From the NCBI GenBank assembly GCA_049519175.1, contig JBEKQZ010000002.1:70782-134781 (forward strand): a stretch of 64,000 bases of DNA, written 5' to 3'. The notes below the pieces were generated by a model. That model had not been told where the DNA came from. It did not search any database and saw only the letters and a list, made by a program, of their open reading frames with translations. The first letter of the stretch is position 1. Each line of letters begins with the position of its first letter. Shown in pieces: positions 16,639 through 57,141 of this stretch. Origin of the DNA: Candidatus Levyibacteriota bacterium (GTDB lineage Bacteria > Patescibacteriota > Microgenomatia > Levybacterales > UBA12049). A program made the position numbers and the translations under genes.

Positions 16639-16643
16639 GTATC

Positions 16644-17618: not shown

Positions 17619-17673
17619 AAAACCTTGACAAACCCCAAAAAATACTTCATATTTAATTGTATAGTAGTATAAC

Positions 17674-19164: not shown

Positions 19165-19168
19165 TATT

Positions 19169-20167
19169 ATGAATAAAGTATTAAGTATTAAGTATAGAAA
19201 AATTTTCGGCTTATTCATGGTCGTTATACTTACTATTGGCTACTTAATACTAAATACTGCACAGCCGGCGCTCGCCCAAGAAACAACCAGAACCGTCACC
19301 ATTTCTTACCCGACCATCGCTCAAAAACTTGACGCTGGCGGCCAGGCAGAAGGCATCACTAAAGTTACCAACAGAAGCGATACGACTCTAACTTTTAAAT
19401 TAGGCGTCCAGGATTTTATCGTTACTGATACCATTGGCACTCCTGAGTTTTTGCCACCGGGAACGTTGAATGATAAATATTCCGCCGCGGCTTGGATCGG
19501 AGCTACTCCCGATACTTTTACTTTAAAACCCGGAGATTCACAAACCATAAACTATTATATCCAAGTACCTCAAAATGCCAGACCGGGCGGACATTACGCC
19601 GCGCTTGTTTATTCGCCGGTCGTGGACAAAACCGTCAGCGGTTCCGGCAGCACCATTAACTCACAGCTTGGCTCTCTTTTTTACATCACCATCAACGGTC
19701 CGATTCACGAGCAAGCATTGGTCAGCAAGTTTTTCGCCAACCCTTTCCAGGAATATGGCCCGGTCAATGTTTTGACCCAACTTAAAAATCTCGGCGATTT
19801 ACACATCACGCCGCAAGGCACTATTACTGTCACCGGTTTATTCTTTAATCAGACCCAAAACTTGCCGACCCATAACATTTTTCCGGAAGCAGCCAGAGAT
19901 TTTAGCAATACTTTTGGACAGAGTCTGATGATTGGACCGTATAAAGCGGTACTCTTAGCCAGTTACGGCACTAATAATAATCTTCCGCTGATGGCGACCG
20001 TTTCTTTCTGGGTTTTCCCGTGGAGAATAACGCTGGTAATTGTGCTTGCGATAGTCGCTTTGATTCTCGGCGCATTATATCTTAAGAAAAGGAAAAAAGA
20101 CGACTCTAAAAAACCTCAAGAAGCCGAAGTTGAACCTGTAGCTACTCCAACCGAACAAGTGAAATAG
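19169..20167 (+). CDS. DUF916-like cell-surface protein (paralogue of 16644..17618)
   Basis: Nearly identical signal peptide MNKVLSIKYRKIFGLFMVVILTIGYLILNTAQPALA. C-terminal TM followed by KKRKKDDSKK. Confidence 0.55.
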   Translation: MNKVLSIKYRKIFGLFMVVILTIGYLILNTAQPALAQETTRTVTISYPTIAQKLDAGGQAEGITKVTNRSDTTLTFKLGVQDFIVTDTIGTPEFLPPGTLNDKYSAAAWIGATPDTFTLKPGDSQTINYYIQVPQNARPGGHYAALVYSPVVDKTVSGSGSTINSQLGSLFYITINGPIHEQALVSKFFANPFQEYGPVNVLTQLKNLGDLHITPQGTITVTGLFFNQTQNLPTHNIFPEAARDFSNTFGQSLMIGPYKAVLLASYGTNNNLPLMATVSFWVFPWRITLVIVLAIVALILGALYLKKRKKDDSKKPQEAEVEPVATPTEQVK

Positions 20168-20188: not shown

Positions 20189-21046
20189 CTAGTATCCCAT
20201 CCACCAACTGTGGTGCAACGGACGCTTCTTAAGAGGATTGACGAATCGCCTTCCCCACAATTTTCTGATCAGTATAATAATCAGGATAACGATTGGTATG
20301 ACAAGCCAAAGTGGATTCCAAAGCCAGTTCTTTAGAAAACGCAGCAGCTGCTCCCACCAATTATTCACCAAATTCGTCACTTGCTTTGGCTTAGAAATAG
20401 ATGTCAGTTGTAATTTTTTTGTCGGGCTTAAAGACTGTTTTTGTTTATATTCTGCCGTGGCGTACAAACTGTAGTTGCCGGCTTTCAGATTTTTTAAAGC
20501 AAACTCATAATAGCCAGTCGAGTCGGCATAAGTGGTAAGCAATTCCCCATTGACGTGCAAAGTGACTTCGGCTTTGGGCATAGTGTAACCAAAAGCCGTG
20601 GCGCTGCCGCCTTCATTAACGGTTGTTCTGGACAATCCTAAAGTCGGCGGAAGAAAAATGTCTTTCATAGTGACGGAAGCGGTTGCAGGCGGAATCGTAA
20701 AACACGTATAAGATTCGCCTATTCTTTTAAAATCTATCGCATCTAGGCAAAAGCCGGAGAAACCCTGTTTGATTAAAACTTGGTTAATTGTAAAGTCGCC
20801 CTGGGCGTCCGCGGTTGTTCCAATCATAAAAACTCCATTTGAAGTTAAAACAACCGAAGCGAAAGGCGAAATATAGCCGGACAAATTTAAATAGAATTGC
20901 CCCACCGAAGCCTGCACTGCAGTATGTAAAGATCCTGGTGGAATTGAAGACACCTGCGCCAAAGACTGAGAGCTTGGAATGATAAAAAATGCAATTGAAA
21001 TTAAAACAATCAGTAGTAATCTCTTCATTACTGATATTATGCTCAA
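20189..21046 (-). CDS. secreted protein with a C-terminal membrane anchor
   Basis: Signal peptide MKRLLLIVLISIAFFIIPSSQSLA. C-terminal TM LWLVIPIVILIIILI followed by RKLWGRR. Confidence 0.5.
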   Translation of the reverse strand: MSIISVMKRLLLIVLISIAFFIIPSSQSLAQVSSIPPGSLHTAVQASVGQFYLNLSGYISPFASVVLTSNGVFMIGTTADAQGDFTINQVLIKQGFSGFCLDAIDFKRIGESYTCFTIPPATASVTMKDIFLPPTLGLSRTTVNEGGSATAFGYTMPKAEVTLHVNGELLTTYADSTGYYEFALKNLKAGNYSLYATAEYKQKQSLSPTKKLQLTSISKPKQVTNLVNNWWEQLLRFLKNWLWNPLWLVIPIVILIIILIRKLWGRRFVNPLKKRPLHHSWWMGY

Positions 21047-21614
21047 AATCTAGCATATATTGCAAGCGAAAAACTATTTTACTATCAAATCTAAATGGCT
21101 TAAGCATTGAAGACTGCTTGAAAACTAACAAAACGTTGTTATATCAATCCAAATATACATTTTTTGTTAGATATCACTTCGACCCTCTAACTGCTAAAAA
21201 ACGACTAAATAATTCTATTGTTTAGCAATTCTTGTTAAGAAAATATATTTCCTTAATGTGTTTTTGCTGCAGAGAACTGACTACCATACCTTAACGCATC
21301 ACTAACAAATATAGGCCTTCTGATATATATTGATGTTTAATGATAGCTTAATTTAGGCAAAATTTAAAACCTTTTGTGCGTTAAAACAAAATAATTAGTC
21401 AGATTTTTCACAATTTTCCCAGAAAATCTACAATGATATAAAATACTACTTACCGCATCATATAAAAATACTCTAGGGCCTTGACAGCAATTTTCAAAAT
21501 TCTTTATTCTAATAGTATGTTAAGTTTTTTTCTTTTAAAGCCATATAAACAGTATAATCCGTATAATCTTGAAGCTAAACAGCTGTCCACCGAGAAAGTG
21601 GCTCGGTAATCAAA

Positions 21615-24600
21615 ATGGATTTATTAAATTTATTCAAAACCTATTTATTTTCACAGGAAGATAAATCTAGTAAGGTTACGGTTAAAAATTATTTATCGGA
21701 TATCAACCATTTCATCCACTGGTATGAAAACACTTTTACCAAAAGCTTTAATCCGAAAGAAATCTCCAGCTTAACTTTAAACGATTATCGAGCCAGTTGT
21801 TCTCAAGCGTTTTCCCCTAGTTCACTAGAACGACATTTTTCATCGCTTCGCAAGTTTTTTAAGTTCTTGCTGATTGAAAGCAAAATTTCCTTAAATCCAT
21901 TTGAAATTAAGAATTTAAAACTAGAAGCACAGCATGATCCGTGGCACATTAAAGATTTTAAAGATTTTCTCTATGTTAGCAACGCTTCGCATTTGACAAT
22001 CAAAAATTATTTAATTGATATTAAACAATTCATTACTTGGGTACAGGCAGTAACTGAATCAAATAATGTTTTGGGGGATATTGATTCGAAACTGATTGAA
22101 GAATATAAACAAAGACTGCTGGAGCAGGGAGATTTTTCGCCGGCGACGATTAACCGCAAGCTATCTTCGCTTCGCAAATATCTTGCCTGGGTACAAGCTA
22201 AAGGATTAGTCAGTCTGCAGCCATCAATTTCCAATTTCCAATTTCCAATTTCCAATCAATTGAGCAATGAGGCAATTGAACAACCTATCAACCAACAGCC
22301 AGCCGAAAGGAAGTACTCAGCTTTCCCTCCTTTTAGAATAGCTCAGAAGATATCAAATGCATTCATTTTTGCCTTAGACAGTGGTCTAATTATCTATTTG
22401 GCAAAACTGGTAGACCGAATTGAATACGCGCTTTGGAAAACCAAAGGCCAACCGGTTTTTGCTAAACTCAAAACGCAAAACGTAAAATTCAAAAATCTGA
22501 CTTCGAACTTCCAAATTCTAAATCCAGCGTCCAGCGTCCAGCGTCCAGCGTCCGTGAAAAACTTACCGAAATCTTTCTATGCCCCGCTGGAAATCTCTAC
22601 CAAATTTTTTCCGTGGTATAAAAAGGCTTGGATAACTGCCAGATATTCCCGACCAAAGTGGTATAAAACATATCATTCCTATCCAATTGTCCATTATTTA
22701 CACTTTGCGGTTTTGATTATCTTTTTAATCGCTATTAGCTTTGGTTTTTATAACGTGTTTTTTCAAAAAGGTAATCAATCACCAACTTTGGCTGCTAGCC
22801 CGGTTGCGCCGCTAAGAATTTTATCTTTTCAAGGAAGATTAACGGATAACAATGACAACCCAATTACGACACCAACCAACCTCCGTTTTGGCATTTATAC
22901 CAGCTCAAGTGCCACCGACTCTGCCAGCACCGCTATTTTCCCCTGGCAGGAAGTCGACACTGTTTCGCCCGACCAGGATGGAATTTTTAATGCCATCTTA
23001 GGCAACAACTCCCCAATTCCATCCACACTTTTTACGCAAAACAACGCGCTTTGGCTGGGTGTAACCGTTGGCACGACGCCGGAATTAACGCCCCGACAGC
23101 AACTGGCAACTGTTGCTTTTGCCACCAACGCCGAAACCTTGCAAGGAATGGTTCCAACCACTTCCAACCCAGCCGCCTATACCAACACGGTTTTAGCGCT
23201 TGACGGAACTGCCAGCTCGCCTACTCTAACCATTGGCGGACTTGTCGGCGCAACTTTTCAGGCCACCGGCGGACAATTTCAAATCTTAGGGACGCCGCTT
23301 TTGCTTGGCACGACTAATGGGTCTGGCGGAAACGTCATCATCGCGCCCGACGGCGCAGGATTGATTGACTTACAAAAACCGCTCGTTAATACTACAAACA
23401 ATAACAATTTGGCCGGCGCCGCGGGCGCAGTTGAAGTTGATGACACCTTTGGCATTTTAGCTACTAGCTCTGCCACGGCTTTTGTGCTTAACCAAAATGG
23501 CGCCGGAGATTTAATGGCGGCTTCCGCCTCCGGAATAACTAAGTTTAGAATTGCTAATACCGGACAAATTATTGCTCCCTATTACAATAGTTGCACTTTA
23601 AAAACTGACAGTAGTGGAAATATTACTTGTGGAAGCGCTGGCGGAGCGCAATTTTGGCAAGAATTATCCGGCGCTTTGTCCCCTTCCAATCTCGGTGACG
23701 ACGTTTTGCTTGGCAGTTCCAGCACTGCATCTGCCAAATTTGCTTTCACCGGCTTAATGGGAACCCAAACTCAAGCTTCATTTTCGGGACAGCTGATAGT
23801 GATGTCTGACAACGGTTATGGTGGCAATGTCGGCATCGGGACGACTACTCCTTCGGTCGCCTTGGATGTTGCCGGCGCCGGCAAATTCTCTTCCAACCTG
23901 ACCGCTTCCACCGGTAATATTTCTTTAGCTAATACTTCCGGCAATACTACCATCGGCAACGGCTCCGGAACACTGGCTTTATCATCTTCCGCTTTTAACG
24001 TCACGACCGGCGGAGCCGTCTCTGGAGTCACCACTCTATCTATGAATAATCAGCTGAGTAACTCCTACGCTAACACAGCTGCTATCAATTTAACCGGTAA
24101 TGCGGCTGGCATCACTTTCGGCGGCAGCGGAGCTAATCAAATCATCACCGGCGGAACCAATAATCTGGCGCTAATGCCGGGCGGCAACGTCGGTGTTAAT
24201 ACCACTTCTCCGTTAGCGCCCCTGGATGTTCGAGGAAATTCCAGTACTACCGCTGTTGCATCGGTTTCCGGTCAAACTTCCTTTGCCGCATTAGTCGCTA
24301 ACAACAACGGCGTTGGCGATTTATTCACCGCTTCTGCTTCGGGTTGGACCAGGTTTAGAATTACCAGCGCGGGCACAGTTTTACCCGGAGCGACAAATGC
24401 TCAAGATATTGGTTCAAGTTCTTTGCAATGGAACAATATTTACGCCAATAATTATTACCTTAATGGAGTTCCTCTAACTTTTGGCGGTTACTGGCAAAGA
24501 ACCGCCGGCAATCTTTCACCCGTCAATACCAATGACACTTTAGCTGCGACTTCTTCGGCCGCAACTGTAGCAACGTTTACCAGCAATAACCCAACCGGCA

Positions 24601-27600
24601 CACTGACTAACAATACTTTAATCCAACAGACCGGTGGCGGGACCGTTACCAATCTTTTGAATTTAACCCAAAGTGCCGGGGCAGTGACTAACGGCATCAC
24701 TTTTTCCGGAACGTTTACCAGCTTAATTAATGATTCGACTGTTTTTAACATTAGTAACAGCGGGGCAGTTAGTGGAGCATCACTGTTACTTAATGATACT
24801 GCCGGCACTAATACAACTGGCATTGGCACCGGCACCACCACCGGACAAGTCACTATCGGCGGCGGTTCGGGAACAGCGGCGGTTAACACCACTAGCTGGA
24901 AAGTGACCTCAGCTGGAGCTGTCTCCGGCTTAACCGACTTGACAGCTTCCGGAACTATCACTTTCTCTGGTTTCAGCAACAGTGATGGAGTAATTTACGC
25001 TAGCTCAGGAGTGCTTTACCAAACAGCGGCCGAGACATCATCGAGTAAATGTTTGGTCGGCGGCGCTACTGCTCCCGCCTGGGCTTCCTGCTCTACCGCA
25101 GCCAGCAATTACTGGCAAAGGACCGCCGGCAATCTTTCACCTGCCACTACCAATGACACTTTAGCTGCGACTAGCTCTGCCGCAACGGTAGCAACCTTTA
25201 CTACTAATAATCCAACCGGCACTTTAACCAACAATACTTTAATCCAACAGACCGGCGCCGGGACCGTCACCAATCTTTTGAATTTAACCCAAAGTAGCGG
25301 AACTGTTACTAACGCCCTGTCTATCAGCGGGACATTCGCTACCGATTTAATCAGCTCACCGACTCTGGTAGTTACTAATGCCGGCGCTGCTTCCGGCTTA
25401 ACCGGCTTATCTTCTTCCGGAACCATCATTTTCTCCGCTTTCAGCAACAGTGGTGGAGTAATTTACGCTAACGCAGGCGCTCTTGCCCAAACAGCTGCCG
25501 GTACCTCTAGTCAATGTTTGGTTGGCGGCGCTTCTGCTCCCACCTGGGCTTCGTGTTCAGCAGTTTCAAACAACTACTGGAGTTTAGTTAATGGTTATGG
25601 AGCTTCCAACGGTGGGTATATCACGCCCATCAACTCCACCGCTGACTTTTTACTCGGCGGGCAATCCACCGCGTCGGCTAAATTTGCAATCTTGAACCTG
25701 AATAGTGGAACACCGACAGCTACCATCGCCGGCAATTTAATAGTAATGCCCTACACCAGCGGCAGCAACGAATCTGGTGGCGGCATACAACTCGGTTCCA
25801 CCATCAATAGCAACAATGTTTTAAATACAGTAGCTCAAGGTGGTGGACCCAGCGGAAACCTGTATTGGGGAAATACACAATTGCTTGATTCAGCCAATCT
25901 CGGTAGTTTCGGAGCATCGTCGGTCAGTAATTCCGACGGAACTTTAACTATCTCCCCGACTACCGGAGCAGTTGTCGCTTCGCTTAACTTATCCCATGCC
26001 AATTCCTGGAGCGGCGCGCAGACTTTTACCGCCAGCACCAACTTCCCCAGCGGCATTTGGAACACCAGCGGAAACGTTGGCATCGGCATCATTTCTCCTT
26101 TGACGGCTCTTGATGTGCGGGGAAATTCCGGCACCACAGCGGTGGCTTCTGTATCGGGACAGACTTCCTTTGCTGCCTTGGTCGTCAATAACAACGGCGT
26201 TGGCGATTTATTCACCGCTTCTGCCAGCGGCTGGACCAGGTTTACGGTTTCCAACACCGGCGCCTTAACGTCAGCCGCTTACACTGGACAAAACGGAATA
26301 CTGTATGGCACCCAGACAACAGGCGTTATTACTCAAGCCACAACTGCCTCTACTGGCCTTTGCTTAATCTCCGGAGCTTCATCTCCAACCTGGTCTTCCT
26401 GCTCTACCGCGGCCAGCAACTATTGGCAATTGGCCGGAAATGCCATCTCGCCAAATACAACAAGTTATGATTTACTGATTGGTTCTGCATCTACCTCTTC
26501 GGCCGCTTTTGCTTTCACCGGACTCATGGGTAGTCAAACCCAAGCTTCTTTCAGTGGACAGTTTGTCGTGATGCCCAATAATGGTTACGGAGGGAATGCT
26601 TCCATTTCGGGAAATTTAACTATCGGTGCGCTGGGAACCAGCTCTTTACAAACTACCAGCGATCAGACTCTAACTATTGGCGGAAATACCACCGGCAACA
26701 TTACACTTTCCCCCTACAATGGCTCTAACGGAATCATCAATCTTAATGCTCCGACCATCAATACCAATGCTACCACCCTGGCTCTGGTTAACACCACTGC
26801 TCTCACTGTGAATTTTGCCGGTGCTGCCACTGCCTTGAACATGGGAGCTCCCACCGGCAGCGCATCCTTGTCGGCAACACTAGTTCTGGGAGGAACTACC
26901 AGCTCTACCATTGAACCGGGCAACGGCACTTTAAACTTTGGCTACAAATCCGGAGCTAACACTTGGGGAACAGCGATGACAATACGGGACAATACCGGTT
27001 ATGTGGGCATCGGCACAACCAGTCCCGGCGCAACGCTTGATGTCAGCGGTAATTCGGGAACAAAAGCGTTTGCCAATTTTTCGGGAAATACTTCTTTTGC
27101 CGGAGTAACAATTAACAACTCCGGCTCCGGTGACTTAATTGCTGCCTCTGCTTCGGGGACAACTGAATTCAAAGTCGATAATAGCGGCGATGTTTACGGC
27201 AGAGTTTGGAAAGATTTGGACAACACTGCTTATTATATGGATTTAAACACCACCGGCTATTCACTTTTAACCGCCGGTTCTGTCGGAATCGGAACAACAA
27301 GTCCAGGAGCACCGTTAGAAATATCCAACGGAACTCAGGCTAAAATTAATCTTACTAAGACTGGCACAACTGCAGGAACTGCGGCAATATATAACGATGG
27401 CAATCTACACATTACCGGTAGTAACGGAGGCAGTAATAATAGTGTATGGATTGATACAGACTCATCTAGCGGATCGTACTCTGTACATATAAATGCAAAC
27501 AGTACGGGAAGCAAAACGCTTTTACAGGAGGCTGGCGGCAATGTCGGAATTGGGACGACAACACCACAAGCAAGTTTAGATATTGCAAATGGTACAAGCC

Positions 27601-30188
27601 GCACTAATGGCTCCACTGCTCTTCTTTTGTACGGCACCGGCAATGGATCAGGAACTGCAGGAGCTTATTCTTATCCTGCTGAATTCGATACGCAAATTAC
27701 ATCAAATATAGAAAGATTGCAAATTGCAGGATATAAACATGACACAACAGCAGACTGGTCGGGCACAGGTTTTAGAATTCAATATGGAGTCGATAGTTCG
27801 TTTACAGACGGCAGCAAAGCTTATGTATACATCGGCTCAACTACCAGCTATAACGGACTAGTTGCGTTAGGAACGGCCGGAAGCGACAGATTGGTAGTTG
27901 ATAATAGCGGCAATGTCGGAATCGGAACAACAGGACCGGGAGATGGAGCAAATACAACAGGCGTGCTTTCGGTTGAGAATACTATTTGGTCGGAAAGTGG
28001 ACATTTCGGCAGTAACTCCGGTAATGGAGTAGTAGTTATAGATTCAGGCCCAAGTGGCACAAGTAATTATTCCATTATCTTTAGAACAGATAATACGTTG
28101 GGTAATATATCTGGCTACGTCGGCCAGGCAGCCGTCTACAATAACGGAAGAATTGCTATAAGAGGTGCAACTTATATTACCGGCGGTATTGACGTTGCTG
28201 AAATTATCAAGACCCAAGACCTTTCTGTTAATGCCGGCGACATTGTTTCACAGGACAGTAGCTCTCCGACAAGTGCTCAAAAATCGCAAACAGCTTATAG
28301 CCAAAACGTCTTAGGAATAATTTCAACTAATCCGGGAGTTATTCTCAATACTGGAGACAATTTTGAGACTCCCCTATCCCAAAATCAAGTTAAACTAGCT
28401 TTAACAGGACGCGTGCCGCTAAAAGTAACGTCTAAAAATGGCGTTATAAGCTTAGGCGATCCAATTACCTCATCTCCCGTCTCCGGATTTGGCATGAAAG
28501 CAACTCAGGCAGGACAAATCGTTGCTAGAGCAATGGAAACTTTCGACCCAAGCACGGCATTTTGTCAGGCTGTAAATTCAATCTCCGATATACAATGGCC
28601 GGCTGACGATGGAAATAATCCCGCGAAGCCATGTTTTAAATTACCAGATGGCTCATATGTTGGCAAAATAATGGCTTTACCGGAAAACTCTTGGTATGAT
28701 CCACAGGTGTATTTGACTTCAAGCGGAGATTTGAGTTTAGTTGACCAGACGGCGGCCGATACCGACTTTACTGTTCCTCACTACTTTACGTTGAACGACG
28801 CTTTGGGAAATCCCCTGCAAAGAGTCGGAGAATTTTCCGACGCCGCAATCGCGAATTTGCGGGTAGGATTGGTAAATGCCCAGCAGGTAACGACCACTGC
28901 TTTATCGGTTTCAACCGAAAATGTGACAATTGCCGGACAAAGTTTGCATAATTACATCGCTTCTATTGTTTCCGAACAACTGGCGAGCATTCAAAACCTA
29001 ACCTCTAATAATGTTGTCTCCCCGATTGCTTCGACCGACGAAATCCATACCAATTTTGTCTCGCCGGTTGATGATACTGCGCAAATTGGATTGAAACTGG
29101 ATAATAATAAATTGTCTGTTTTGAGCGGTAATTCTGCCAGCTCTTCGGCGATAGCCACCATTGATAATTCGGGCAACGCTAGTTTCAGCGGACAGCTAAC
29201 TTCCAATAGTTTGAACACAAACGACGCGACCGTGAGCGGAACTTTGCATGTCGGGAAAATTATCGCCGACGAAATCGTCGGCGCAACTCCGTCGGCAACT
29301 TACGTTACCAACGTCACCAATATCTATAATAGTAGCCCGTCTGCTTCTAATTCCGACTTTGGACTGATTGCCGACGCCGCTACCGTCGGCACTGCTTCAG
29401 CAGTCGGTAGTGAGCAGTCAGCGGCCAACGGCTACATTGACATCAGTTCTTACTCCGGACAACTGACGTATGTCCCAAATTTGGGCGCTGACAACGCCGT
29501 GTTTGGCCAAAATCTAACGGTGTTTGGAGAAACTTCCCTTTCCGATACTTCGATTGTCGGTCAACTTTCGGTCAACGGCAGCTTAATACTGGCCGATAAC
29601 TCGATTAATGTTTTGGGCAGTGATTTAAATCTGCAACCACTACGGCAAGGCGGACTGTCAATTATGGGCGGCTTAGTTTACATTGATACCGACGGAAACT
29701 TAAAAGTTGGCGGCAATGCCGAGTTTGCCAAAAATGTCACGGTCAATGGAACACTGGCAACCAATGTCATCAGTCCCCTGCCCGGCAATGATTTAAATGT
29801 GAATACCGGAAATTCCAATCTCCAAATTACGAATGCAAGCGATTCCGCTATTTTGAGCGTTAACAATTTAGGCGATTTGGTCGCCAGCGGAGCCGGAACA
29901 TTTAGTAAATTAAACCTTGGGCTGGTTCAGCCGGCGCTGGCCGTTTCCCAAACTGAAGTTGTTGCCACCGGCTCCGCCGGAACAGCCAACATTGCCCCCT
30001 ACCAAACTCAAGTAACAATTGATGACCCGGTCGTAACCGACAAGAGTTTGATTTACATCACGCCGACTTCCAGCACCAACAACCAGGTTTTGTATTTGCT
30101 AAAACAAGTGCCGGATGAATCTTTTACCGTCGGCTTACAAAATCCAAGTATCGCGCCAATTCCGTTCAATTGGATTATCGTAAATTAA
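21615..30188 (+). CDS. giant (2857 aa) membrane-anchored surface protein. The N-terminus has two tandem integrase-type SAM-like/core-binding domains, then one TM helix, then a repetitive Gly/Thr/Ser/Asn-rich β-helix or fibre-like ectodomain
   Basis: Residues ~1-100 (VTVKNYLSDINHFIHWYE...LERHFSSLRKFFKFLL) and ~120-200 (LTIKNYLIDIKQFITWVQ...INRKLSSLRKYLAWVQ) resemble the XerD/phage-integrase N-terminal domain. The TM helix is IVHYLHFAVLIIFLIAISFGFYNVFF. Repeated motifs include GNVGIGTTSP, P(L/A)LDVRGNS...GVGDLFTASASGWTRF and a ~200-aa repeat starting YWQRTAGNLSP. Confidence 0.85.
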   Translation: MDLLNLFKTYLFSQEDKSSKVTVKNYLSDINHFIHWYENTFTKSFNPKEISSLTLNDYRASCSQAFSPSSLERHFSSLRKFFKFLLIESKISLNPFEIKNLKLEAQHDPWHIKDFKDFLYVSNASHLTIKNYLIDIKQFITWVQAVTESNNVLGDIDSKLIEEYKQRLLEQGDFSPATINRKLSSLRKYLAWVQAKGLVSLQPSISNFQFPISNQLSNEAIEQPINQQPAERKYSAFPPFRIAQKISNAFIFALDSGLIIYLAKLVDRIEYALWKTKGQPVFAKLKTQNVKFKNLTSNFQILNPASSVQRPASVKNLPKSFYAPLEISTKFFPWYKKAWITARYSRPKWYKTYHSYPIVHYLHFAVLIIFLIAISFGFYNVFFQKGNQSPTLAASPVAPLRILSFQGRLTDNNDNPITTPTNLRFGIYTSSSATDSASTAIFPWQEVDTVSPDQDGIFNAILGNNSPIPSTLFTQNNALWLGVTVGTTPELTPRQQLATVAFATNAETLQGMVPTTSNPAAYTNTVLALDGTASSPTLTIGGLVGATFQATGGQFQILGTPLLLGTTNGSGGNVIIAPDGAGLIDLQKPLVNTTNNNNLAGAAGAVEVDDTFGILATSSATAFVLNQNGAGDLMAASASGITKFRIANTGQIIAPYYNSCTLKTDSSGNITCGSAGGAQFWQELSGALSPSNLGDDVLLGSSSTASAKFAFTGLMGTQTQASFSGQLIVMSDNGYGGNVGIGTTTPSVALDVAGAGKFSSNLTASTGNISLANTSGNTTIGNGSGTLALSSSAFNVTTGGAVSGVTTLSMNNQLSNSYANTAAINLTGNAAGITFGGSGANQIITGGTNNLALMPGGNVGVNTTSPLAPLDVRGNSSTTAVASVSGQTSFAALVANNNGVGDLFTASASGWTRFRITSAGTVLPGATNAQDIGSSSLQWNNIYANNYYLNGVPLTFGGYWQRTAGNLSPVNTNDTLAATSSAATVATFTSNNPTGTLTNNTLIQQTGGGTVTNLLNLTQSAGAVTNGITFSGTFTSLINDSTVFNISNSGAVSGASLLLNDTAGTNTTGIGTGTTTGQVTIGGGSGTAAVNTTSWKVTSAGAVSGLTDLTASGTITFSGFSNSDGVIYASSGVLYQTAAETSSSKCLVGGATAPAWASCSTAASNYWQRTAGNLSPATTNDTLAATSSAATVATFTTNNPTGTLTNNTLIQQTGAGTVTNLLNLTQSSGTVTNALSISGTFATDLISSPTLVVTNAGAASGLTGLSSSGTIIFSAFSNSGGVIYANAGALAQTAAGTSSQCLVGGASAPTWASCSAVSNNYWSLVNGYGASNGGYITPINSTADFLLGGQSTASAKFAILNLNSGTPTATIAGNLIVMPYTSGSNESGGGIQLGSTINSNNVLNTVAQGGGPSGNLYWGNTQLLDSANLGSFGASSVSNSDGTLTISPTTGAVVASLNLSHANSWSGAQTFTASTNFPSGIWNTSGNVGIGIISPLTALDVRGNSGTTAVASVSGQTSFAALVVNNNGVGDLFTASASGWTRFTVSNTGALTSAAYTGQNGILYGTQTTGVITQATTASTGLCLISGASSPTWSSCSTAASNYWQLAGNAISPNTTSYDLLIGSASTSSAAFAFTGLMGSQTQASFSGQFVVMPNNGYGGNASISGNLTIGALGTSSLQTTSDQTLTIGGNTTGNITLSPYNGSNGIINLNAPTINTNATTLALVNTTALTVNFAGAATALNMGAPTGSASLSATLVLGGTTSSTIEPGNGTLNFGYKSGANTWGTAMTIRDNTGYVGIGTTSPGATLDVSGNSGTKAFANFSGNTSFAGVTINNSGSGDLIAASASGTTEFKVDNSGDVYGRVWKDLDNTAYYMDLNTTGYSLLTAGSVGIGTTSPGAPLEISNGTQAKINLTKTGTTAGTAAIYNDGNLHITGSNGGSNNSVWIDTDSSSGSYSVHINANSTGSKTLLQEAGGNVGIGTTTPQASLDIANGTSRTNGSTALLLYGTGNGSGTAGAYSYPAEFDTQITSNIERLQIAGYKHDTTADWSGTGFRIQYGVDSSFTDGSKAYVYIGSTTSYNGLVALGTAGSDRLVVDNSGNVGIGTTGPGDGANTTGVLSVENTIWSESGHFGSNSGNGVVVIDSGPSGTSNYSIIFRTDNTLGNISGYVGQAAVYNNGRIAIRGATYITGGIDVAEIIKTQDLSVNAGDIVSQDSSSPTSAQKSQTAYSQNVLGIISTNPGVILNTGDNFETPLSQNQVKLALTGRVPLKVTSKNGVISLGDPITSSPVSGFGMKATQAGQIVARAMETFDPSTAFCQAVNSISDIQWPADDGNNPAKPCFKLPDGSYVGKIMALPENSWYDPQVYLTSSGDLSLVDQTAADTDFTVPHYFTLNDALGNPLQRVGEFSDAAIANLRVGLVNAQQVTTTALSVSTENVTIAGQSLHNYIASIVSEQLASIQNLTSNNVVSPIASTDEIHTNFVSPVDDTAQIGLKLDNNKLSVLSGNSASSSAIATIDNSGNASFSGQLTSNSLNTNDATVSGTLHVGKIIADEIVGATPSATYVTNVTNIYNSSPSASNSDFGLIADAATVGTASAVGSEQSAANGYIDISSYSGQLTYVPNLGADNAVFGQNLTVFGETSLSDTSIVGQLSVNGSLILADNSINVLGSDLNLQPLRQGGLSIMGGLVYIDTDGNLKVGGNAEFAKNVTVNGTLATNVISPLPGNDLNVNTGNSNLQITNASDSAILSVNNLGDLVASGAGTFSKLNLGLVQPALAVSQTEVVATGSAGTANIAPYQTQVTIDDPVVTDKSLIYITPTSSTNNQVLYLLKQVPDESFTVGLQNPSIAPIPFNWIIVN

Positions 30189-30189
30189 A

Positions 30190-31944
30190 ATGAACATACA
30201 AAATCTAAAGAAAATCGTTAGTCTTATCACGCTTCCTCTAGTTTTTTTTAACGTGTTCCTTACCTTTTATTCCACTGTTCCTGAAATTATTCATGATCTT
30301 GGACGACATATCCTACTGGGAAGCATTATCGTTCATACTGGGAATGTTCCCAAAATTAATTTATTATCTTACGCTTTCGCAAATTATCCATTTATTAATT
30401 CCCACTGGCTTTCAGAAGTAATTTTCTATATTGTCGACAGTCTATTTGGTCTCCATGGCTTACTAATTTTAACGACAATTATTTCCCTTTTGAGTTTTGG
30501 GTTAATTTATCTCGTAGCTATAAAACAGACAAGAATAAAATTTGAAAATTTATATTTGCTAAATTTTACTGCGCTTCTTTATCTAGGAATTTACATGGAC
30601 AGACCTGGGATCAGACCTGAAATCTTTAGTTATTTTATTTTATCGATTTTTATGTACATTTTGTACAAGTATAAGAATGGATACACAAAATTAATTTTCC
30701 TTTTAATTCCTCTTGAAGCTTTATGGGTAAATTCACATATTTACTTTTTAATTGGTGTCGTCGTTGTGGGAGTATTTTTGCTTGATGAGCTTTGGAGTAA
30801 TAGAAACGACTTAAAAATCTACTTGGAGACCCAAAAAATAAGGAATTTTATCCTTGTATTCATCGGAGTCATATTGGTAACTTTTTTGAACCCAAACACT
30901 TATAAAGGAACCTTGTTCTCGCTTGATTTCTTTTCTAATTACGGCATACAACCAAGTGAAAATTTTAACATTTTTTACTTCTACTTAAACCCTCCAATTA
31001 CTACTGGAATGCTCATCTTTAGCATTACCGCTATTGTTCTCATTCTATTTCTCTTTCTTTATAAAAAGAGATGCTTTCTAGACGTTGTCTTAAGCTTAGG
31101 TTTTATTGCTTTCGCTATGATCGCCGTAAGAAATGTTGCCGTTTTTGTTTTCACTACTCTTCCAATATTTGTCTCCGCTCTCCTAAGCCTTGATCTTTTG
31201 CAGAAAAAGAAAATTTTAATTCTTCTTACTTTTTTCATTTGTATCTTTATCTTTATTGCTGAGATAAACATCTTACAAGCAAGAAGATCTCTTGATTTAG
31301 ACACTACTAATGCAGATAAACAGGCTTTGGATTTTTTTATTAAAAATAACGTGCATGGCCCTATCTATAACAATTTTGGTATTGGGAGCTATATTGCCTA
31401 CAGGCTATACCCGAAAGAAAAACCCTTTATTGACGAGCGCCCGGAAGCATACCCGACAGATTTTTTTGTCAATTCTTATGAAAAAACACAATTCGATATG
31501 AAAGCTTTTAATTCAATGGCAGAAAAATATCAATTCAACTCTGCCATACTTGTCTTATCAAATGATTCATCTTCTCATAAACAGATCCAAAATTTTATTA
31601 ATAACCCCTCTTGGAAAACGATCTATTTTAACCCGGCAGTGGTAATTTTTGTTAAAAACACACTTGAAAACAACTCGCTTATTAAAAAATATGGAATGTC
31701 CGAAAGCAACTTTAAAATTAGCAATATTTTTAACGACTTTTATTACTTAGGTAACCTTGCAACGTTATTTAATGAATTAGGATGGCTAGAACAAGAAATA
31801 TATATAGATAAATTAATAATTAATATTGCGCCCAACTATTGTCCTACTCTAGAAAGGCTAGCTGAAATCAATCACGTTCAAAAAATAAATTATGGCTCTT
31901 ATTTACAAAAATATAATAGATATTGCGGAGAACTTTTCTTTTGA
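30190..31944 (+). CDS. polytopic membrane protein, possibly a GT-C-fold glycosyltransferase
   Basis: 584 aa with ≥10 TM helices. Its start overlaps the stop of the giant gene (ATGA). No soluble catalytic domain is recognisable. Confidence 0.55.
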   Translation: MNIQNLKKIVSLITLPLVFFNVFLTFYSTVPEIIHDLGRHILLGSIIVHTGNVPKINLLSYAFANYPFINSHWLSEVIFYIVDSLFGLHGLLILTTIISLLSFGLIYLVAIKQTRIKFENLYLLNFTALLYLGIYMDRPGIRPEIFSYFILSIFMYILYKYKNGYTKLIFLLIPLEALWVNSHIYFLIGVVVVGVFLLDELWSNRNDLKIYLETQKIRNFILVFIGVILVTFLNPNTYKGTLFSLDFFSNYGIQPSENFNIFYFYLNPPITTGMLIFSITAIVLILFLFLYKKRCFLDVVLSLGFIAFAMIAVRNVAVFVFTTLPIFVSALLSLDLLQKKKILILLTFFICIFIFIAEINILQARRSLDLDTTNADKQALDFFIKNNVHGPIYNNFGIGSYIAYRLYPKEKPFIDERPEAYPTDFFVNSYEKTQFDMKAFNSMAEKYQFNSAILVLSNDSSSHKQIQNFINNPSWKTIYFNPAVVIFVKNTLENNSLIKKYGMSESNFKISNIFNDFYYLGNLATLFNELGWLEQEIYIDKLIINIAPNYCPTLERLAEINHVQKINYGSYLQKYNRYCGELFF

Positions 31945-31977: not shown

Positions 31978-34146
31978 TTGATAAGTTTAGAACACATGCA
32001 AAACGAACAACAGAAATTGGAAATCGTCAATTACATCGAGCGGGCTTCAATTGTGATTTTAGGACTGCTGTTTATCCTCTTTCCGGTGTTTTTAACCAAT
32101 TTGACGACTGACTATTTTATCCTGCCAAAACAAGCGCTGGTTATTTTTGCCTGCATCGCGGTCATGATTTTATACGGCGTCAAAACTTTACTGCTGGAAA
32201 AAGTCCGGATTAGAAGAACGCCTTTTGACTTGGCTGTCATTCTTTTCTTGGCCGCGATTTTGCTATCGTCAATCTTTTCCGCAGCTTGGGCTGATTCGCT
32301 AAATAATTTTATTCCCGTGCTTTTTGCCGGTCTGCTCTATTTTGGTATCGTTTACAATGCCACCAACGGAAAAGCGGTGATGCTTTTGATCGGCAGCCTT
32401 TTAACCGGCGCTTGCCTTTTGGCCGTTATGCCGATTCTTGCGCATTTGCAAATTTACGTTTTACCCTATGATTTTACCAAAGTCACCGTTTTCACTCCCA
32501 CCGGCTCAAATTTAGACCAAGTTTTGTATTTACTATTTGTCTTGCCAGTTAGCGTCTACTTTGTCTTACCGTTTTTGCTCAAAAAACAGGCGAGCAAAAT
32601 TTTCAGCGAGAAAAAAGAAGATCTGGTTAAAATCTTCGGTTTTGGTTTAGCCGGCATAATCATTCTAATCGGACTTGCCGTATCAATCTATAATTTAATA
32701 CAACCTAATGGATTCATTATTCTCCCGCTTGAAACCGGCTTTCAGACCGCTTTCGCCGCCATTTCGCAAGACGCCGGCCGGACTTTGCAGGGCTTTTTGT
32801 TCGGTAACGGTTTCGGCGAATATCTTTTAGCTTTTGCCAAATTTAAACAGGCTAGTTTTAACGCTAATCCGACGCTGTGGGGACTTGGTTTTATTCATTC
32901 TTCCAGCTTTGTCTTGGAACTTTTGGCAACCACCGGCATACTGGGATTTTTGAGTTTTCTTTATCTTTGCTACAGAGTTATCCGCGAAAGACCACTGTTT
33001 GTACCGGTCATCATCATTTTGGCAGCCGCTTTTATCCTACCTTTAACTTTTATTAGCTTAGCCCCTTTGTTTTTCCTGTTGGCAATTTACGCCGCCTTAC
33101 GCGGGCTATCCAACGACCAGAAATATTTTGACGTTGAACTGGAACTGGTAGCTTTTAAAAAAGGCTTGATTACGTTTACGACCGAGGGTGAAAAAAGAAA
33201 GGACTACGGAAAAATTCTTTCCTATTCTATTTTTGGCATCATTCTAATTGTGGTAGTATTACTTGGCTTCCTAAGTTTTGACTTCCTTTCTACCAACGTC
33301 ACTTTTAACAAAGCTTTAGTTGCTGCCGACCAAAATAACGGCCAACTCACTTATACTTATGAAAATGCCGCCGTCAGTAGTTTTACCGGTAAATACAATG
33401 ACAGCTACTTTAGGACTTTTTCGCAAACCAACCTGGCGTTGTCCAATTCGCTGGCGGCTTCCGTTCCACAAGGAGCTAGCCCAAGCGCCCAAACCCAGCA
33501 AACGATTTATACGCTTGTCCAACAATCAATCAATGCCGGAAGACAAGCCACGACCTTATCCTCGCAAAATCCGCTGGACTGGCAAAATCTAGCCTACATT
33601 TATAGAAATCTAATTGGCTTTGGACAGAATGCCGACCAATTCGCAATCGCCGCCCAACAGCAAGCGATTCAACTTGACCCGGCCAACCCGCAGGAATATA
33701 TTAGTTTGGGCGGAATTTACTACCAATTGGGAACCTGGGATAAAGCCTTGGCACAATTTCAACAAGCGGCGGCCTTGAAATCTGATTTTCCTAACGCCTA
33801 CTACAACATCGCTCATACTTTAATTCAACAAGGAGATCTAAAAGGTGCACTGGCGCAACTTGAAACCGTTAAATCTTTGGAAACAAACGACCCAACCAAT
33901 CTGGCTAAAGTCAATGCTGAGATTACGCAACTGCAAGCGCAGATAAACAAACAAGGAGTTGGGGGACAAACAACCACAGGCAACGGACAGACAACTTTAT
34001 CGACCAATCCGCCAACAGAGAATCTACCGAAACAGAATCCGCCGGTAAAAATTCCGGCGCCGGAAGCGACTATTACGCCAACCACTACTCCAACTCCGAC
34101 AACCGAAGGGGGAACTCCTCTTCCTACCGCCACCCCAACACAATAA
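31978..34146 (+). CDS. O-antigen ligase/polymerase-like (Wzy_C-type) membrane protein with C-terminal TPR repeats and a TP-rich tail
   Basis: ~12 TM helices with a large periplasmic loop. C-terminal TPR-like repeats (AYIYRNLIG..., YISLGGIYYQLGTWDKALAQFQQA, AYYNIAHTLIQQGDLKGALAQL). Ends in a TPTTTPTPTTEGGTP tail. Confidence 0.6.
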   Translation: MISLEHMQNEQQKLEIVNYIERASIVILGLLFILFPVFLTNLTTDYFILPKQALVIFACIAVMILYGVKTLLLEKVRIRRTPFDLAVILFLAAILLSSIFSAAWADSLNNFIPVLFAGLLYFGIVYNATNGKAVMLLIGSLLTGACLLAVMPILAHLQIYVLPYDFTKVTVFTPTGSNLDQVLYLLFVLPVSVYFVLPFLLKKQASKIFSEKKEDLVKIFGFGLAGIIILIGLAVSIYNLIQPNGFIILPLETGFQTAFAAISQDAGRTLQGFLFGNGFGEYLLAFAKFKQASFNANPTLWGLGFIHSSSFVLELLATTGILGFLSFLYLCYRVIRERPLFVPVIIILAAAFILPLTFISLAPLFFLLAIYAALRGLSNDQKYFDVELELVAFKKGLITFTTEGEKRKDYGKILSYSIFGIILIVVVLLGFLSFDFLSTNVTFNKALVAADQNNGQLTYTYENAAVSSFTGKYNDSYFRTFSQTNLALSNSLAASVPQGASPSAQTQQTIYTLVQQSINAGRQATTLSSQNPLDWQNLAYIYRNLIGFGQNADQFAIAAQQQAIQLDPANPQEYISLGGIYYQLGTWDKALAQFQQAAALKSDFPNAYYNIAHTLIQQGDLKGALAQLETVKSLETNDPTNLAKVNAEITQLQAQINKQGVGGQTTTGNGQTTLSTNPPTENLPKQNPPVKIPAPEATITPTTTPTPTTEGGTPLPTATPTQ

Positions 34147-34832: not shown

Positions 34833-35021
34833 AATTTAAATCTCAACTTGCGTTGAAAATTAAAAATTGAAAATTGATGTGTCACCTCCTTTCTGAACTT
34901 TCATGTATATTTTTCCCTTTTCTCCTGTTTTTTAGTTCAGAAAGAATCGAGGAACTGATACCATAAGTACTACTTGCAAGTATAGAGGCAAAATGGAGAA
35001 ATAGCAAGTACGACCAATTTG

Positions 35022-35092
35022 TGGACCTGAGGGGAATCGGACCCCTTACTCCTCCATGCCATGGAGGCGTGTTACCGGTATACCACAGGCCC
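35022..35092 (-). tRNA. tRNA-Ala (anticodon GGC)
   Basis: Reverse complement GGGCCTGTGGTATACCGGTAACACGCCTCCATGGCATGGAGGAGTAAGGGGTCCGATTCCCCTCAGGTCCA. Acceptor stem 7 bp with the G3:U70 Ala identity pair. Anticodon stem CCTCC/GGAGG with loop AUGGCAU. T-arm AGGGG/CCCCU. CCA is not encoded. The D-stem is imperfect. Confidence 0.65.
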
Positions 35093-35096
35093 CGGG

Positions 35097-56873: not shown

Positions 56874-56904
<31 letters not shown>

Positions 56905-57045: not shown

Positions 57046-57141
<96 letters not shown>

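Follow-up and report, generated by a model that had tools for sequence, protein, structure and literature searches.

The open reading frame at positions 21615–30188 (plus strand) of the 64-kb window, by which we mean the whole stretch of DNA analysed, is real and encodes a giant protein of 2,857 aa. Taken as a whole, the evidence makes it probable that this protein is a surface fibre of a Levybacteria-like CPR bacterium, anchored in the membrane in type-II (N-in, C-out) orientation. From its N-terminus it runs through two core-binding (SAM-like) domains, a basic linker of ~160 aa, one signal-anchor helix and an acidic ectodomain of ~2,470 aa. Pfam, the fold search, the topology and the ectodomain length agree with the original prediction of two integrase-type domains joined to a ~2,400-aa fibre. 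Among the three functions suggested there, the best fit is a fibre for attachment or recognition, whose tail perhaps regulates, and our best reading is a host-recognition fibre that is possibly autoregulated via its own tail. The features of the locus are as follows.

15889–20167, plus strand: probable Pam-type pilus operon (NCBIfam profiles, termini, synteny)
20189–21046, minus strand: divergent Big/CarboxypepD_reg protein with signal peptide and C-terminal TM anchor (Pfam, termini)
21481–21510, plus strand: promoter-like site TTGACA-18-TATTCT (consensus scan, 10/12 matches)
21543–21579, plus strand: conserved 35-nt cis-element ATATAAACAGTATAATCCGTATAATCTTGAAGCTAAA (three in-phase repeats; conservation in relatives)
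21615–30188, plus strand: giant gene (ORF call, 2,857 aa)
21618–21905, plus strand: SAM-like/core-binding domain 1, aa 2–97 (Pfam, AlphaFold, fold matches)
21948–22199, plus strand: SAM-like/core-binding domain 2, aa 112–195 (Pfam, AlphaFold, fold matches)
22215–22685, plus strand: basic, predicted cytoplasmic linker, aa 201–357 (pI 10.1, AlphaFold, conserved motif)
22686–22763, plus strand: predicted single transmembrane signal-anchor helix, aa 358–383 (hydropathy and flanking charge)
22764–24614, plus strand: conserved membrane-proximal part of the ectodomain, aa 384–1000 (tblastn across 82 loci)
24615–28124, plus strand: variable, internally duplicated shaft, aa ~1000–2170 (DNA repeats, motifs, PHROG tail-fibre matches)
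28182–28709, plus strand: G2-like beta domain, aa ~2190–2365 (homology to a Peptidase_G2-matching ORF, fold matches)
29412–30185, plus strand: conserved C-terminal module, aa 2600–2857 (51 loci; pLDDT 90–95)
30190–31944, plus strand: 584-aa polytopic membrane protein (hydropathy; GC 0.32)
31978–34146, plus strand: conserved partner, a 722-aa polytopic membrane protein with C-terminal TPR repeats and a Pro/Thr-rich tail (Pfam, hydropathy)

Residues 1–220 match Phage_int_SAM_1 (PF02899) at 75.2 bits against a cutoff of 22.3 (Pfam E 5e-21), and the match falls in two stretches, aa ~2–97 and 112–195, in line with the two copies originally proposed. SAM_4 and SAM_5 also score above their cutoffs, and Phage_int_SAM families were the only ones in Pfam to match this N-terminus. 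The NCBIfam XerD/XerC models (~295 positions) match at E 7e-20, but over their first ~90–118 positions only, giving 71 bits against cutoffs of ~330. A fold search was needed because phmmer found no match for residues 1–220 among PDB sequences. The AlphaFold model has a pLDDT of 93–98 across both domains, and its top Foldseek matches, 2a3v, 5vfz, 1z19, 3nrw (TM 0.72, rmsd 2.0 Å) and 5hxy, are all tyrosine-recombinase core-binding domains.

The two domains are 31% identical to each other (E 5e-13) and have their recognition-helix motifs in common. The motif pattern first reported for them was located in the sequence as VKNYLSDINHFIHW with FSSLRKFFKFL and IKNYLIDIKQFITW with LSSLRKYLAWV. Helix B of domain 1 carries T22-V-K24-N-Y, and domain 2 carries T128-I-K130-N-Y and N180-R-K-L-S-S-L-R187, both family-invariant. 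Among 82 relatives, T[VIL]KNY is retained by 81 in the first domain and by at least 69 in the second, with K130, N131, R181, K182 and R187 invariant in the family. The absence of a following catalytic domain holds as well: Pfam detected no Phage_integrase domain (PF00589; R-K-H-R-H-Y active site) at E ≤ 0.1 on the whole giant protein. As a catalytic domain is missing altogether, the family is misnamed in databases as ‘site-specific integrase’. It shares with XerC/XerD and phage integrases an N-terminal core-binding four-helix domain, by sequence and by fold, but differs from them in having that domain duplicated in tandem and no catalytic domain behind it.

The linker that follows (aa 201–357) has a pI of 10.1, a conserved YSxFPPxRxxQK motif and a long amphipathic helix (aa 238–276). 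It leads into IVHYLHFAVLIIFLIAISFGFYNVFF (aa 358–383; Kyte-Doolittle (KD) hydropathy 2.41), the string already proposed as the single TM helix. No signal peptide was found on the giant protein, and there are seven K/R in the 30 residues before this helix versus three in the 30 after it. Across 37 relatives, the equivalent segment has a median KD of 1.99 and 0.1 charged residues, with flanks averaging 2.9 versus 1.5 K/R. Topology derived from these hydropathy and charge rules supports a predicted single TM helix with the N-terminus inside. We rejected a two-span topology, in which the SAM domains would lie outside, because the weaker hydrophobic helix at aa 248–266 is not TM-like across the family, with a median KD of 1.19, ~2.4 charged residues within it and basic residues on both sides.

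The ectodomain has a pI of 4.2, a K+R content of 2.5% and paired Cys loops, features that we take as likely signs of an extracellular location. It is, as described in the original prediction, rich in Gly, Thr, Ser and Asn and repetitive: the Gly+Thr+Ser+Asn+Ala fraction is 0.51–0.67 from aa 400 to 2200, GxVGIGT units lie at aa 737, 857, 1795, 1975 and 2099, and the long unit ...LDVRGNS..TTAVASVSGQTSFAALV.NNNGVGDLFTASASGWTRF is present in two copies that are 75% identical as DNA. The membrane-proximal part begins LSFQGRLTD..., and tblastn detects aa 384–1000 in 79 of 82 loci. The shaft beyond it (aa ~1000–2170), with GNVGIGTT units and CxxGGxxxPxWxSC loops, is found in just 27–39 of the 82; its internal DNA repeats are 68–84% identical, and the fibre middle varies in length by duplication.

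The proposed likeness to phage tail fibres is borne out by several kinds of search. PHROGs returned two weak tail-fibre matches (E 9e-7), profiles matched lambda J and the mosaic adhesive trimer (MAT) structures 8ol4 (E 0.0013) and 8ond (E 0.0086) of Bdellovibrio, where the similarity rests on the short GNVGIGTT motif, and Foldseek matched tailspikes, lambda J, phi29 gp12, an R-pyocin fibre and a GalNAc lectin. Viral matches at E ≤ 0.001 numbered 71, including a preneck appendage protein. Pfam found nothing at E ≤ 1 in seven overlapping fibre segments of the window copy, and we count against our explanation that this copy lies below every Pfam threshold in the fibre.

Towards the C-terminus, a G2-like region with a pLDDT of ~90 keeps D2193-V-A-E2196, the D and E of which are nearly invariant in the family. 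It is homologous to an ORF from another locus that matches Peptidase_G2 at E 1e-9, and Foldseek places it with phi29 gp12 (3suc/3gqh, probability 0.99–1.0); a viral preneck appendage protein matches at E 5e-8. PF11962 (Peptidase_G2) is matched by 19 of 36 orthologous segments (best E 2.6e-11), and the window segment, which has no match above the Pfam threshold, is 34% identical to a matching orthologue. We regard the region as a candidate intramolecular-chaperone autoprocessing region. The phi29 gp12 pre-neck appendage and its Peptidase_G2 autochaperone are similar in their beta-rich domain and in a conserved D-x-A-E motif near the fibre C-terminus; they differ in that the window copy stays under the Pfam threshold, ~500 more conserved residues follow and cleavage is putative. 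The C-terminal module (aa 2600–2857) occurs in 51 loci at a median identity of 46% and ends in a confident beta-sandwich (aa ~2786–2857; pLDDT 90–95).

A close parallel outside CPR bacteria is with the MATs of Bdellovibrio bacteriovorus (8ol4, 8ond, 8onf). Like the MATs, the giant protein would be a long surface fibre made of phage-tail-fibre-type segments, with the GNVGIGTT...L.V.G unit in common, and some of each carry intramolecular-chaperone domains: S74 in MATs, and S74 and G2 annotations among the relatives of the giant protein. With its MATs, a bacterium living on other bacteria recognises the surfaces of its prey. They have a cleavable signal peptide and, after it, a conserved beta-rich N-terminal domain of ~130 aa, which is proposed to bind the surface of the predator (PMC10769870). 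In place of these, the giant family has the tandem core-binding module, predicted to be cytoplasmic, and a TM anchor. The receptor-binding tips of MATs and phages are variable. In the giant family it is the middle that varies and the C-terminus that is conserved, which we likewise count against our explanation. By analogy with phage fibres and MATs, the ectodomain (modelled by AlphaFold as a monomer) would form a trimeric fibre, and its conserved G2-like and C-terminal part may serve as an intramolecular chaperone that is possibly cut near D2193.

The giant protein is not unique but a member of a large family. Searches for proteins with the N-terminal doublet, which the original prediction had proposed for other CPR genomes, found at least 204 representative clusters sharing the module at E ≤ 1e-30 and at least 369 loci in reference genomes, mostly from Levybacteria. 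Cluster lengths are typically 1,300–1,700 aa and reach 6,048 aa, complete genes encode 1,346 to over 3,796 aa, and ~45 of 50 complete genes contain the N-terminal module, TM, fibre, G2-like region and C-terminal module in one ORF. Most relatives are annotated ‘site-specific integrase, partial’ and are usually contig-end fragments. Recognition of the family, which is abundant in Levybacteria and related lineages yet hidden under an integrase name, corrects hundreds of annotations that would otherwise inflate integrase and mobile-element counts in CPR genomes. CPR bacteria account for a large part of the diversity of bacteria, and the majority seem to live in attachment to other cells; to our knowledge, very little is known of their host-recognition and gene-regulation machinery. 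In this family we have a candidate for a host-recognition fibre, analogous to the MATs.

Genomic context points in a similar direction. Pam-like genes lie upstream of the fibre gene in 53 of 55 loci, and the Big/CarboxypepD_reg gene is present in 22 of the 55. The probable pam operon of the window encodes secreted pilin-like proteins (15889–16638, 17674–19164) interleaved with chaperone-like proteins (16644–17618, 19169–20167) that have a signal peptide and a C-terminal TM anchor. Its profile matches lie below curated cutoffs: 36.7 bits against 240 for CPR_pilus_PamT (NF058579; E 3e-9) and 26 bits against 55 for CPR_Pam_pilin_C (NF058581; E 6e-6 and 9e-6). For WxLIP_PGBD, ORF 16644 scores 26.2 bits, just under the Pfam cutoff of 27.3, and ORF 19169 has an E of 0.008. 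[quoted passage not shown] From its identical genomic position, beside Pam-type pilin and chaperone genes, we infer that this protein belongs to the giant family. The preprint and its supplement contain no domain analysis, accession or function for it, and the preprint makes no mention of integrase-type domains, a TM anchor or a cis-element. The architecture of the giant protein was also not described in the literature searched (on the Pam pilus, giant Patescibacteria proteins, and Phage_int_SAM with transmembrane), and the SAM-SAM-TM-fibre order is not mentioned in the giant-gene preprint. The fibre and the putative Pam-type pilus encoded beside it would work together when the cell recognises or attaches to a host or a surface.

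Upstream of the giant gene we newly recognised the cis-element ATATAAACAGTATAATCCGTATAATCTTGAAGCTAAA, which consists of three (G)TATAATC copies with a 10-bp period followed by CTyGArGCT and is a candidate operator and/or promoter. It is the single such site in the window. The element is found in 69–78 of 82 related loci and is ~90% conserved, while the proteins are 35–45% identical. Relaxed matches in 1.27 Mb of loci lie upstream of a family gene, on the same strand, in 77 of 80 cases, and a metagenome search with the element alone returned 120 contigs, with the family gene downstream in 107 of the 115 that were assessable. As the element is nearly confined to one gene, we rejected the idea that a general promoter motif alone explains it. 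We also rejected a known RNA motif as the content of the leader: no Rfam family covers the element or leader, all matches being far under gathering scores. The TATTCTAAT block of the promoter-like site recurs 5′ of the repeats in relatives, a similar motif (≤ 2 mismatches) being present in 51 of 78 loci, mostly 37–38 nt before the first repeat.

Membrane regulators of the ToxR/CadC/TcpP type have an OmpR-type winged helix and small periplasmic sensor domains. The giant protein is like them in its cytoplasmic N-terminal DNA-binding-type domain, single TM helix and extracytoplasmic domain, but has the integrase core-binding fold in place of the winged helix and a ~2,470-aa fibre outside, with its regulatory role hypothesised. 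Tentatively, and with the balance somewhat against it, we propose that the membrane-tethered domains bind the three (G)TATAATC repeats upstream of their own gene, giving autoregulation or, in the manner of a one-component regulator, coupling fibre export, assembly or contact to transcription. The element–gene association, specific in both directions, counts for this hypothesis, and the recognition-helix motifs common to the two domains fit a direct-repeat target with one helical turn per repeat.

A precedent is offered by E. coli FliZ, which represses by binding extended −10-like DNA and for which R108 is essential (PMC3367168). FliZ also has a PF02899 domain with no recombinase catalytic domain, and its −10-like promoter targets resemble the three −10-like hexamers of the candidate site. 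R108 aligns with K24 and K130, both invariant or nearly so; this correspondence was taken from a MAFFT and Pfam-register alignment rather than from hhalign, which gave the family profile a probability of 5% against FliZ and a doubtful register. Binding would occlude the −10-like repeats much as FliZ does. FliZ differs in being soluble, 183 aa long and single-domain, in acting globally and in discriminating via C(−13), whereas the giant protein has two domains, a membrane tether, a giant ectodomain and essentially one candidate site per genome. More speculatively, and we think it rather unlikely, the fibre could be a single-polypeptide transmembrane signalling device, in which tandem FliZ-like domains on the promoter repeats set transcription according to how much of the fibre is exported, assembled or host-engaged; were it trimeric, three tails could meet three repeats. 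If true, it would be the first transcription factor to combine a membrane tether with an integrase core-binding domain and would give CPR bacteria their first defined protein/operator pair, with transcription of a very costly gene tuned to fibre state. The gene-specific element makes the protein–DNA hypothesis directly testable with a 200-residue fragment and a 40-bp duplex, with no need for cultivation.

The main alternative keeps the surface fibre but has SAM-like domains that do not bind DNA. They would instead serve in the cytoplasm for protein interaction or anchoring, perhaps by docking to partners from secretion, pilus or cytoskeleton or by holding the long precursor in an export-competent state, and the triple TATAAT would be a strong or specialised promoter for RNA polymerase or a separate regulator. 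We consider this account, with the docking and export roles included in it, doubtful but a genuine contender. The element may be no more than an unusual promoter for RNA polymerase or another factor, because its TATAAT hexamers are perfect and a gap of at least 12 nt always separates its end from the start codon, a spacing of the third TATAAT compatible with a −10 box. At one related locus (L185), moreover, the element precedes a different surface protein gene without SAM domains, so the domains, if they bind the element, must be able to act in trans. The domains are also mildly basic (pI 8.2–9.1) and DNA binding is a putative function. Set against this, contacts of helices B and D with DNA are established in the structures of Cre, lambda Int and XerD. 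The invariant K24/K130, N131, R181, K182 and R187 occupy polar or basic positions of these same helices, which contact DNA in tyrosine recombinases and FliZ (PMC3367168). A 35-nt block ~90% conserved before one gene family is also longer and more specific than a sigma-70 promoter needs, and its 10-bp phasing implies repeated recognition on one helix face.

Rather than regulating, the domains could hold chromosomal or incoming DNA under the fibre, for example linking host contact with the uptake of DNA or with positioning of the nucleoid. Such a nucleic-acid anchor would fit with the pair of DNA-binding-type domains, their long basic linker and the reliance of CPR bacteria on scavenged nucleotides, and in one relative (L002) ComEC and ComEA genes lie ~8–10 kb upstream. 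However, leuS and the pam operon intervene between those competence genes and the fibre gene, no DNA uptake machinery is conserved in the locus, and the highly specific conserved site beside the gene points to sequence-specific rather than general binding. We therefore consider the anchor improbable. A domesticated or decaying mobile-element remnant, in which chance joined a prophage integrase to a tail-fibre gene and the N-terminus has no selected function, is highly improbable despite phage-type homologues for both halves and the integrase labels of relatives, since the architecture, synteny and invariant residues persist over at least 204 clusters and 369 genomes and since, as also led us to reject an origin of the locus from phage, the window has the genes of an ordinary chromosome (ArgRS, LeuS, Rho, RadA and rRNA) and neither the element nor the C-terminal domain was found in 2.9 million viral contigs.

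Of the two genes downstream, the first had been described as a 12-TM protein translationally coupled to the giant gene. The close junction stands, stop and start being 1 nt apart (TAAAATG), but the 584-aa product shows ~8 hydrophobic peaks instead of 12, and it was found in 0 of 82 related loci; it lies outside the conserved system, and the coupling is local. The second, originally called an O-antigen-ligase/TPR protein, keeps the TPR half of its description (E 1e-12), the only part that a profile of this 722-aa protein matched in PDB, whereas the ligase half is weakly backed: Wzy_C was not detected in the window copy and occurs in 3 of 24 orthologues. The protein has ~12 hydrophobic peaks, and its gene lies directly 3′ of the fibre gene (~30–340 nt) in most of the 29 loci having this partner.

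The fibre gene is one unbroken ORF (window 21615–30188, plus strand; 2,857 codons). The original prediction had read its product as two integrase-type core-binding (SAM) domains, a single TM helix and a giant fibre, with no catalytic domain. This architecture is correct, and both of the tests it named, a match of the N-terminus to integrase domains and an N-terminus inside the cell, came out in its favour. Over residues 1–220 the Pfam model Phage_int_SAM_1 scores 75.2 bits against a cutoff of 22.3, in two stretches (~2–97 and 112–195), and the SAM_4 and SAM_5 models likewise exceed their thresholds. The NCBIfam XerD, XerC and XerA models match through their positions 1 to 90–118 only, at ~71 bits against cutoffs of ~330. 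The protein is not a recombinase: the defining catalytic domain was looked for with Pfam over all 2,857 residues and is absent.

Structural modelling was performed using AlphaFold with 37 homologues, giving pLDDT scores of 93–98 across both SAM domains, each of which comprises four helices. The top Foldseek matches in the PDB are tyrosine-recombinase core-binding domains without exception.

Foldseek matches of the N-terminal domains
2a3v: VchIntIA integron integrase
5vfz: Brujita integrase
1z19, 2oxo: lambda integrase
5hxy: XerA
3nrw: isolated Haloarcula domain (TM 0.72, rmsd 2.0 Å over 89 residues)

Domains 1 and 2 of the window protein share 31% identity (E 5e-13). An alignment of 37 sequences shows no variation at K130, N131, Y132, D135, N180, R181, K182 or R187, and the motif T[VIL]KNY occurs in 81 first domains and at least 69 second domains among 82 related loci.

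The TM helix named in the original prediction corresponds to residues 358–383 (KD 2.41), and the protein lacks an N-terminal signal peptide. Seven K/R and no acidic residue occur in the 30 residues preceding the helix, and three K/R in the 30 that follow it. A weaker hydrophobic stretch at residues 248–266 was also examined, since a protein that crossed the membrane twice would have its SAM domains on the outside. In 37 relatives the median KD of this stretch is 1.19; it contains ~2.4 charged residues and is flanked by basic residues on both sides. The second segment has a KD of 1.99 and 0.1 charged residues, with 2.9 vs 1.5 K/R in its flanks. These family-wide properties reject the two-span topology. 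In the AlphaFold model the stretch belongs to a 39-residue helix; most plausibly it is amphipathic or interfacial. The cytoplasmic linker has a pI of 10.1; the ectodomain has a pI of 4.2 with only 2.5% K+R, and carries three CxxGGxxxPxWxSC loops. From hydropathy and the positive-inside rule we conclude that this is a predicted single-pass type II membrane protein, N-in and C-out.

The fibre itself has the Gly/Thr/Ser/Asn-rich composition and phage-tail-fibre-like repeats first described for it. No Pfam model reaches threshold on the fibre of the window protein, yet several independent results point the same way. PHROG tail-fibre families match it (E 9e-7 and 4e-5). When the last 688 residues were searched as a profile, a GNVGIGTT...L.V.G unit linked them to the Bdellovibrio MAT structures 8ol4 and 8ond, and the lambda tip attachment protein J was hit as well. 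The AlphaFold model of these residues is confident only at ~2190–2365 and ~2786–2857. Its fold matches are tailspikes, lambda J, R-pyocin fibres, a GalNAc lectin, and the phi29 gp12 premature spike with its C-terminal autochaperone fragment (3suc, 3gqh). It has 71 matches (E ≤ 0.001) in a viral structure library; top-ranked among them are a preneck appendage protein (E 5e-8, TMt 0.62), tail fibres and intramolecular-chaperone proteins. Pfam Peptidase_G2 was found on the orthologous segment in 19 of 36 relatives, to one of which the G2-like segment of the window protein is 34% identical. This segment retains the nearly invariant D2193-x-A-E2196. Precomputed annotation also assigns Peptidase_S74 or G2 to close homologues of the C-terminal part. 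Phage fibres with such domains are trimers whose C-terminal chaperone is often cleaved away, and phi29 gp12 is cleaved beside an Asp, with an essential Glu nearby. MAT fibres with such domains are also trimers that often lose the chaperone by cleavage (PMC10769870).

The family is large and mis-annotated. An exhaustive phmmer search with residues 1–400 returned 204 clusters (50% identity representatives) at E ≤ 1e-30, mostly of 1,300–1,700 aa with a maximum of 6,048 aa; in nearly all, the alignment starts at residue 1 and spans the complete N-terminal module. When one genome per GTDB species was scanned, at least 369 family loci were confirmed, the best 80 of which are Levybacteria-type MAGs; many TPA records bear a placeholder ‘Gammaproteobacteria’ title. 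A word-indexed search found 60 clusters, mostly contig-end fragments that go under the names ‘site-specific integrase, partial’ or ‘recombinase XerD’; their sources are Levybacteria, ‘Patescibacteria group’ and a number of Saccharimonadales MAGs.

In 50 complete genes (1,346–3,710 aa; some truncated copies exceed 3,796 aa) the order is invariable: SAM, SAM, linker, TM, proximal ectodomain, variable middle, G2-like region and conserved C-terminal module. The middle of the window protein (aa 1000–2170) is matched in only 27–39 of the 82 loci, the protein ends in 51–82. Since the middle is this patchy and DNA duplications inside the window gene are 68–84% identical, the window copy is an expanded member of the family. 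Because the C-terminal ~660 residues are conserved and the middle is variable, we infer that the former are an assembly module and not the specificity determinant. In a 1.14-Mb Levybacteria chromosome (OY970292.1; loci L001/L046, 10001–14627) the family gene is split into ORFs of 677 and 868 aa with a 14-nt overlap; a frameshift, whether programmed or from assembly, or decay to a pseudogene could account for this.

The region 5′ of the fibre gene is 568 nt, long by CPR-genome standards. Within it, window 21543–21579 retains 86–96% identity (BLASTN) to related loci where the proteins are only 35–45% identical. Anchored alignment of 78 distinct loci gave the consensus ATAAtcnGTATAATCcGTATAATcTcGaggCTaaa, in which (G)TATAATC recurs three times, every 10 bp, ahead of a conserved CTyGArGCT. 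The original prediction did not mention this element (35 nt, ~90% conserved). It occurs once in the 64-kb window and recurs among the reference-genome loci L003–L082 and the metagenome contigs L083–L202. It is almost exclusive to the 5′ region of family genes. The related loci (1.27 Mb) have 80 relaxed matches, of which 77 lie just 5′ of a family gene on its strand. The pattern alone retrieved at least 120 metagenome contigs; of the 120 listed, 107 encode a family N-terminus 3′ of the element in the same orientation and five are too short for judgement. Of the remaining eight, L112 encodes a divergent member and the short contig L186 may do so as well, while the matches in L159, L182 and L174 are chance-like. 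In L092 and L113 a small gene (four-helix-bundle type, ...LTDQMRRAATSITSNIAEGFGR...) is inserted 3′ of the element, ahead of where the fibre gene would be expected and before the contig end; such an insertion may explain loci where the element lies 300–1,000 nt from the start codon. The true exception is L185 (6734–6765), where the full element and a TTCGGGAAT block precede a non-family gene for a signal-anchored surface protein (>429 aa, MKLFKFLSKLL...) without SAM domains, a hint of a small regulon or of promoter swapping. A scan of 2.9 million viral contigs yielded no match to the element, and it has no Rfam family.

The distance from the element to the start codon is at least 12 nt and typically ~30–70 nt. 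A TATTCTAAT block lies 5′ of it in 51 of the 78 loci, mostly at a spacing of 37–38 nt, and in the window forms part of TTGACA-18-TATTCT. The repeats could be a −10 region or part of the early transcribed region. A second motif, TTTTCACA (window 21405–21412), recurs in 1–3 copies on either side of the element in many loci (28 of 78 within −70 to +61). TTCGG(G/T)AAT and CTGCC blocks stand immediately 5′ of the start codon in many loci, and the window has a CCGAG-N7-CTCGG hairpin at 21590–21606.

The pairing of protein module and cis-element is of main interest here, as it permits a concrete and cheap experiment. E. coli FliZ (183 aa) has one PF02899 domain (E 8e-15) and no catalytic domain. It represses sigma-S promoters by binding sequences resembling the extended −10 element TCTATACTTAA, and its essential R108 lies in a helix equivalent to DNA-binding helix 2 of integrase core-binding domains (PMC3367168). 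There is thus precedent for a core-binding domain that reads −10-like DNA. In a MAFFT alignment in the Pfam register, FliZ T-V-R108-E-Y corresponds to T-V-K24-N-Y in domain 1 and T-I-K130-N-Y in domain 2, and in both DNA-facing helices it is exactly the polar and basic positions that the family conserves. Motifs common to both domains would suit a direct repeat in which each unit spans one helical turn. We raise, as a tentative and somewhat doubtful proposal, that the cytoplasmic SAM domains bind the triple repeat 5′ of their own gene. Such binding would predict autoregulation of a very costly gene or, alternatively, a link from export, assembly or contact to transcription like that of ToxR/CadC-type bitopic regulators. 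It would have to be able to work in trans, since the L185 element serves a gene without SAM domains. Overall, the closest functional parallel of the protein is an adhesive fibre of the MAT or phage type, here combined with an anchor of a new kind and a FliZ-type tail.

Genes 5′ of the fibre gene (window position)
15177: small polytopic protein
15889: secreted PamT-like and pilin-C-like protein
16644: signal-peptide protein with C-terminal TM and weak WxLIP_PGBD match
17674: secreted pilin-C-like protein
19169: second signal-peptide protein with C-terminal TM
20189, minus strand, divergent: Big/CarboxypepD_reg protein with C-terminal TM

This layout agrees with the Pam pilus operon recently described in CPR, whose pilins assemble by donor-strand exchange with membrane-anchored PamC/PamD chaperones and which consistently co-localises with ‘a tail fibre-like protein’, given no further detail (bioRxiv 10.64898/2026.03.03.709456). 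That unnamed neighbour is the nearest mention we found in the searchable literature, in which no description of the SAM-SAM-TM-fibre architecture turned up. We term the window operon Pam-type because its NCBIfam Pam scores are below cutoffs. Among 55 loci with sufficient upstream sequence, 53 have PamT-like and WxLIP-like genes 5′ of the fibre gene and 49 have leuS. A histidine kinase gene (HisKA and HATPase_c; 9539–11281, plus strand), ~10 kb 5′ of the fibre gene, keeps its position in 13 of the 55.

On the 3′ side, a 584-aa polytopic membrane protein (30190–31944) separates the fibre and TPR genes. It does abut the fibre gene as predicted, with stop and start 1 nt apart (TAAAATG), but it is not a conserved partner: it has no homologue in the 82 related loci, no Pfam or NCBIfam match, and a GC content of 0.32 vs ~0.42 for the window. 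It is probably a recent local insertion. The predicted O-antigen-ligase/TPR protein is indeed a polytopic TPR protein, directly 3′ of the fibre gene (~30–340 nt) in most of the 29 loci that have it, but the ligase label is weak, since Wzy_C matches the membrane part in only 3 of 24 orthologues.

The window is chromosomal and CPR-like, encoding aminoacyl-tRNA synthetases, Rho, RadA and a 4.2-kb 23S rRNA gene with a group I intron (56740–60960, minus strand; further coordinates 58040–58273 and 58346–58876). A 176-aa ORF close to the intron, inside the rRNA span, may be a homing endonuclease. A 5S rRNA gene (56567–56678) and tRNA-Ala(TGC) (61074–61149) were also located, together with a tRNA-Ala pair (GGC and CGC anticodons; 35021–35167, minus strand) separated by 2 nt. 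A 1,241-aa ORF (41083–44808, plus strand) with no Pfam match at E ≤ 1e-5 may be another large uncharacterised protein.
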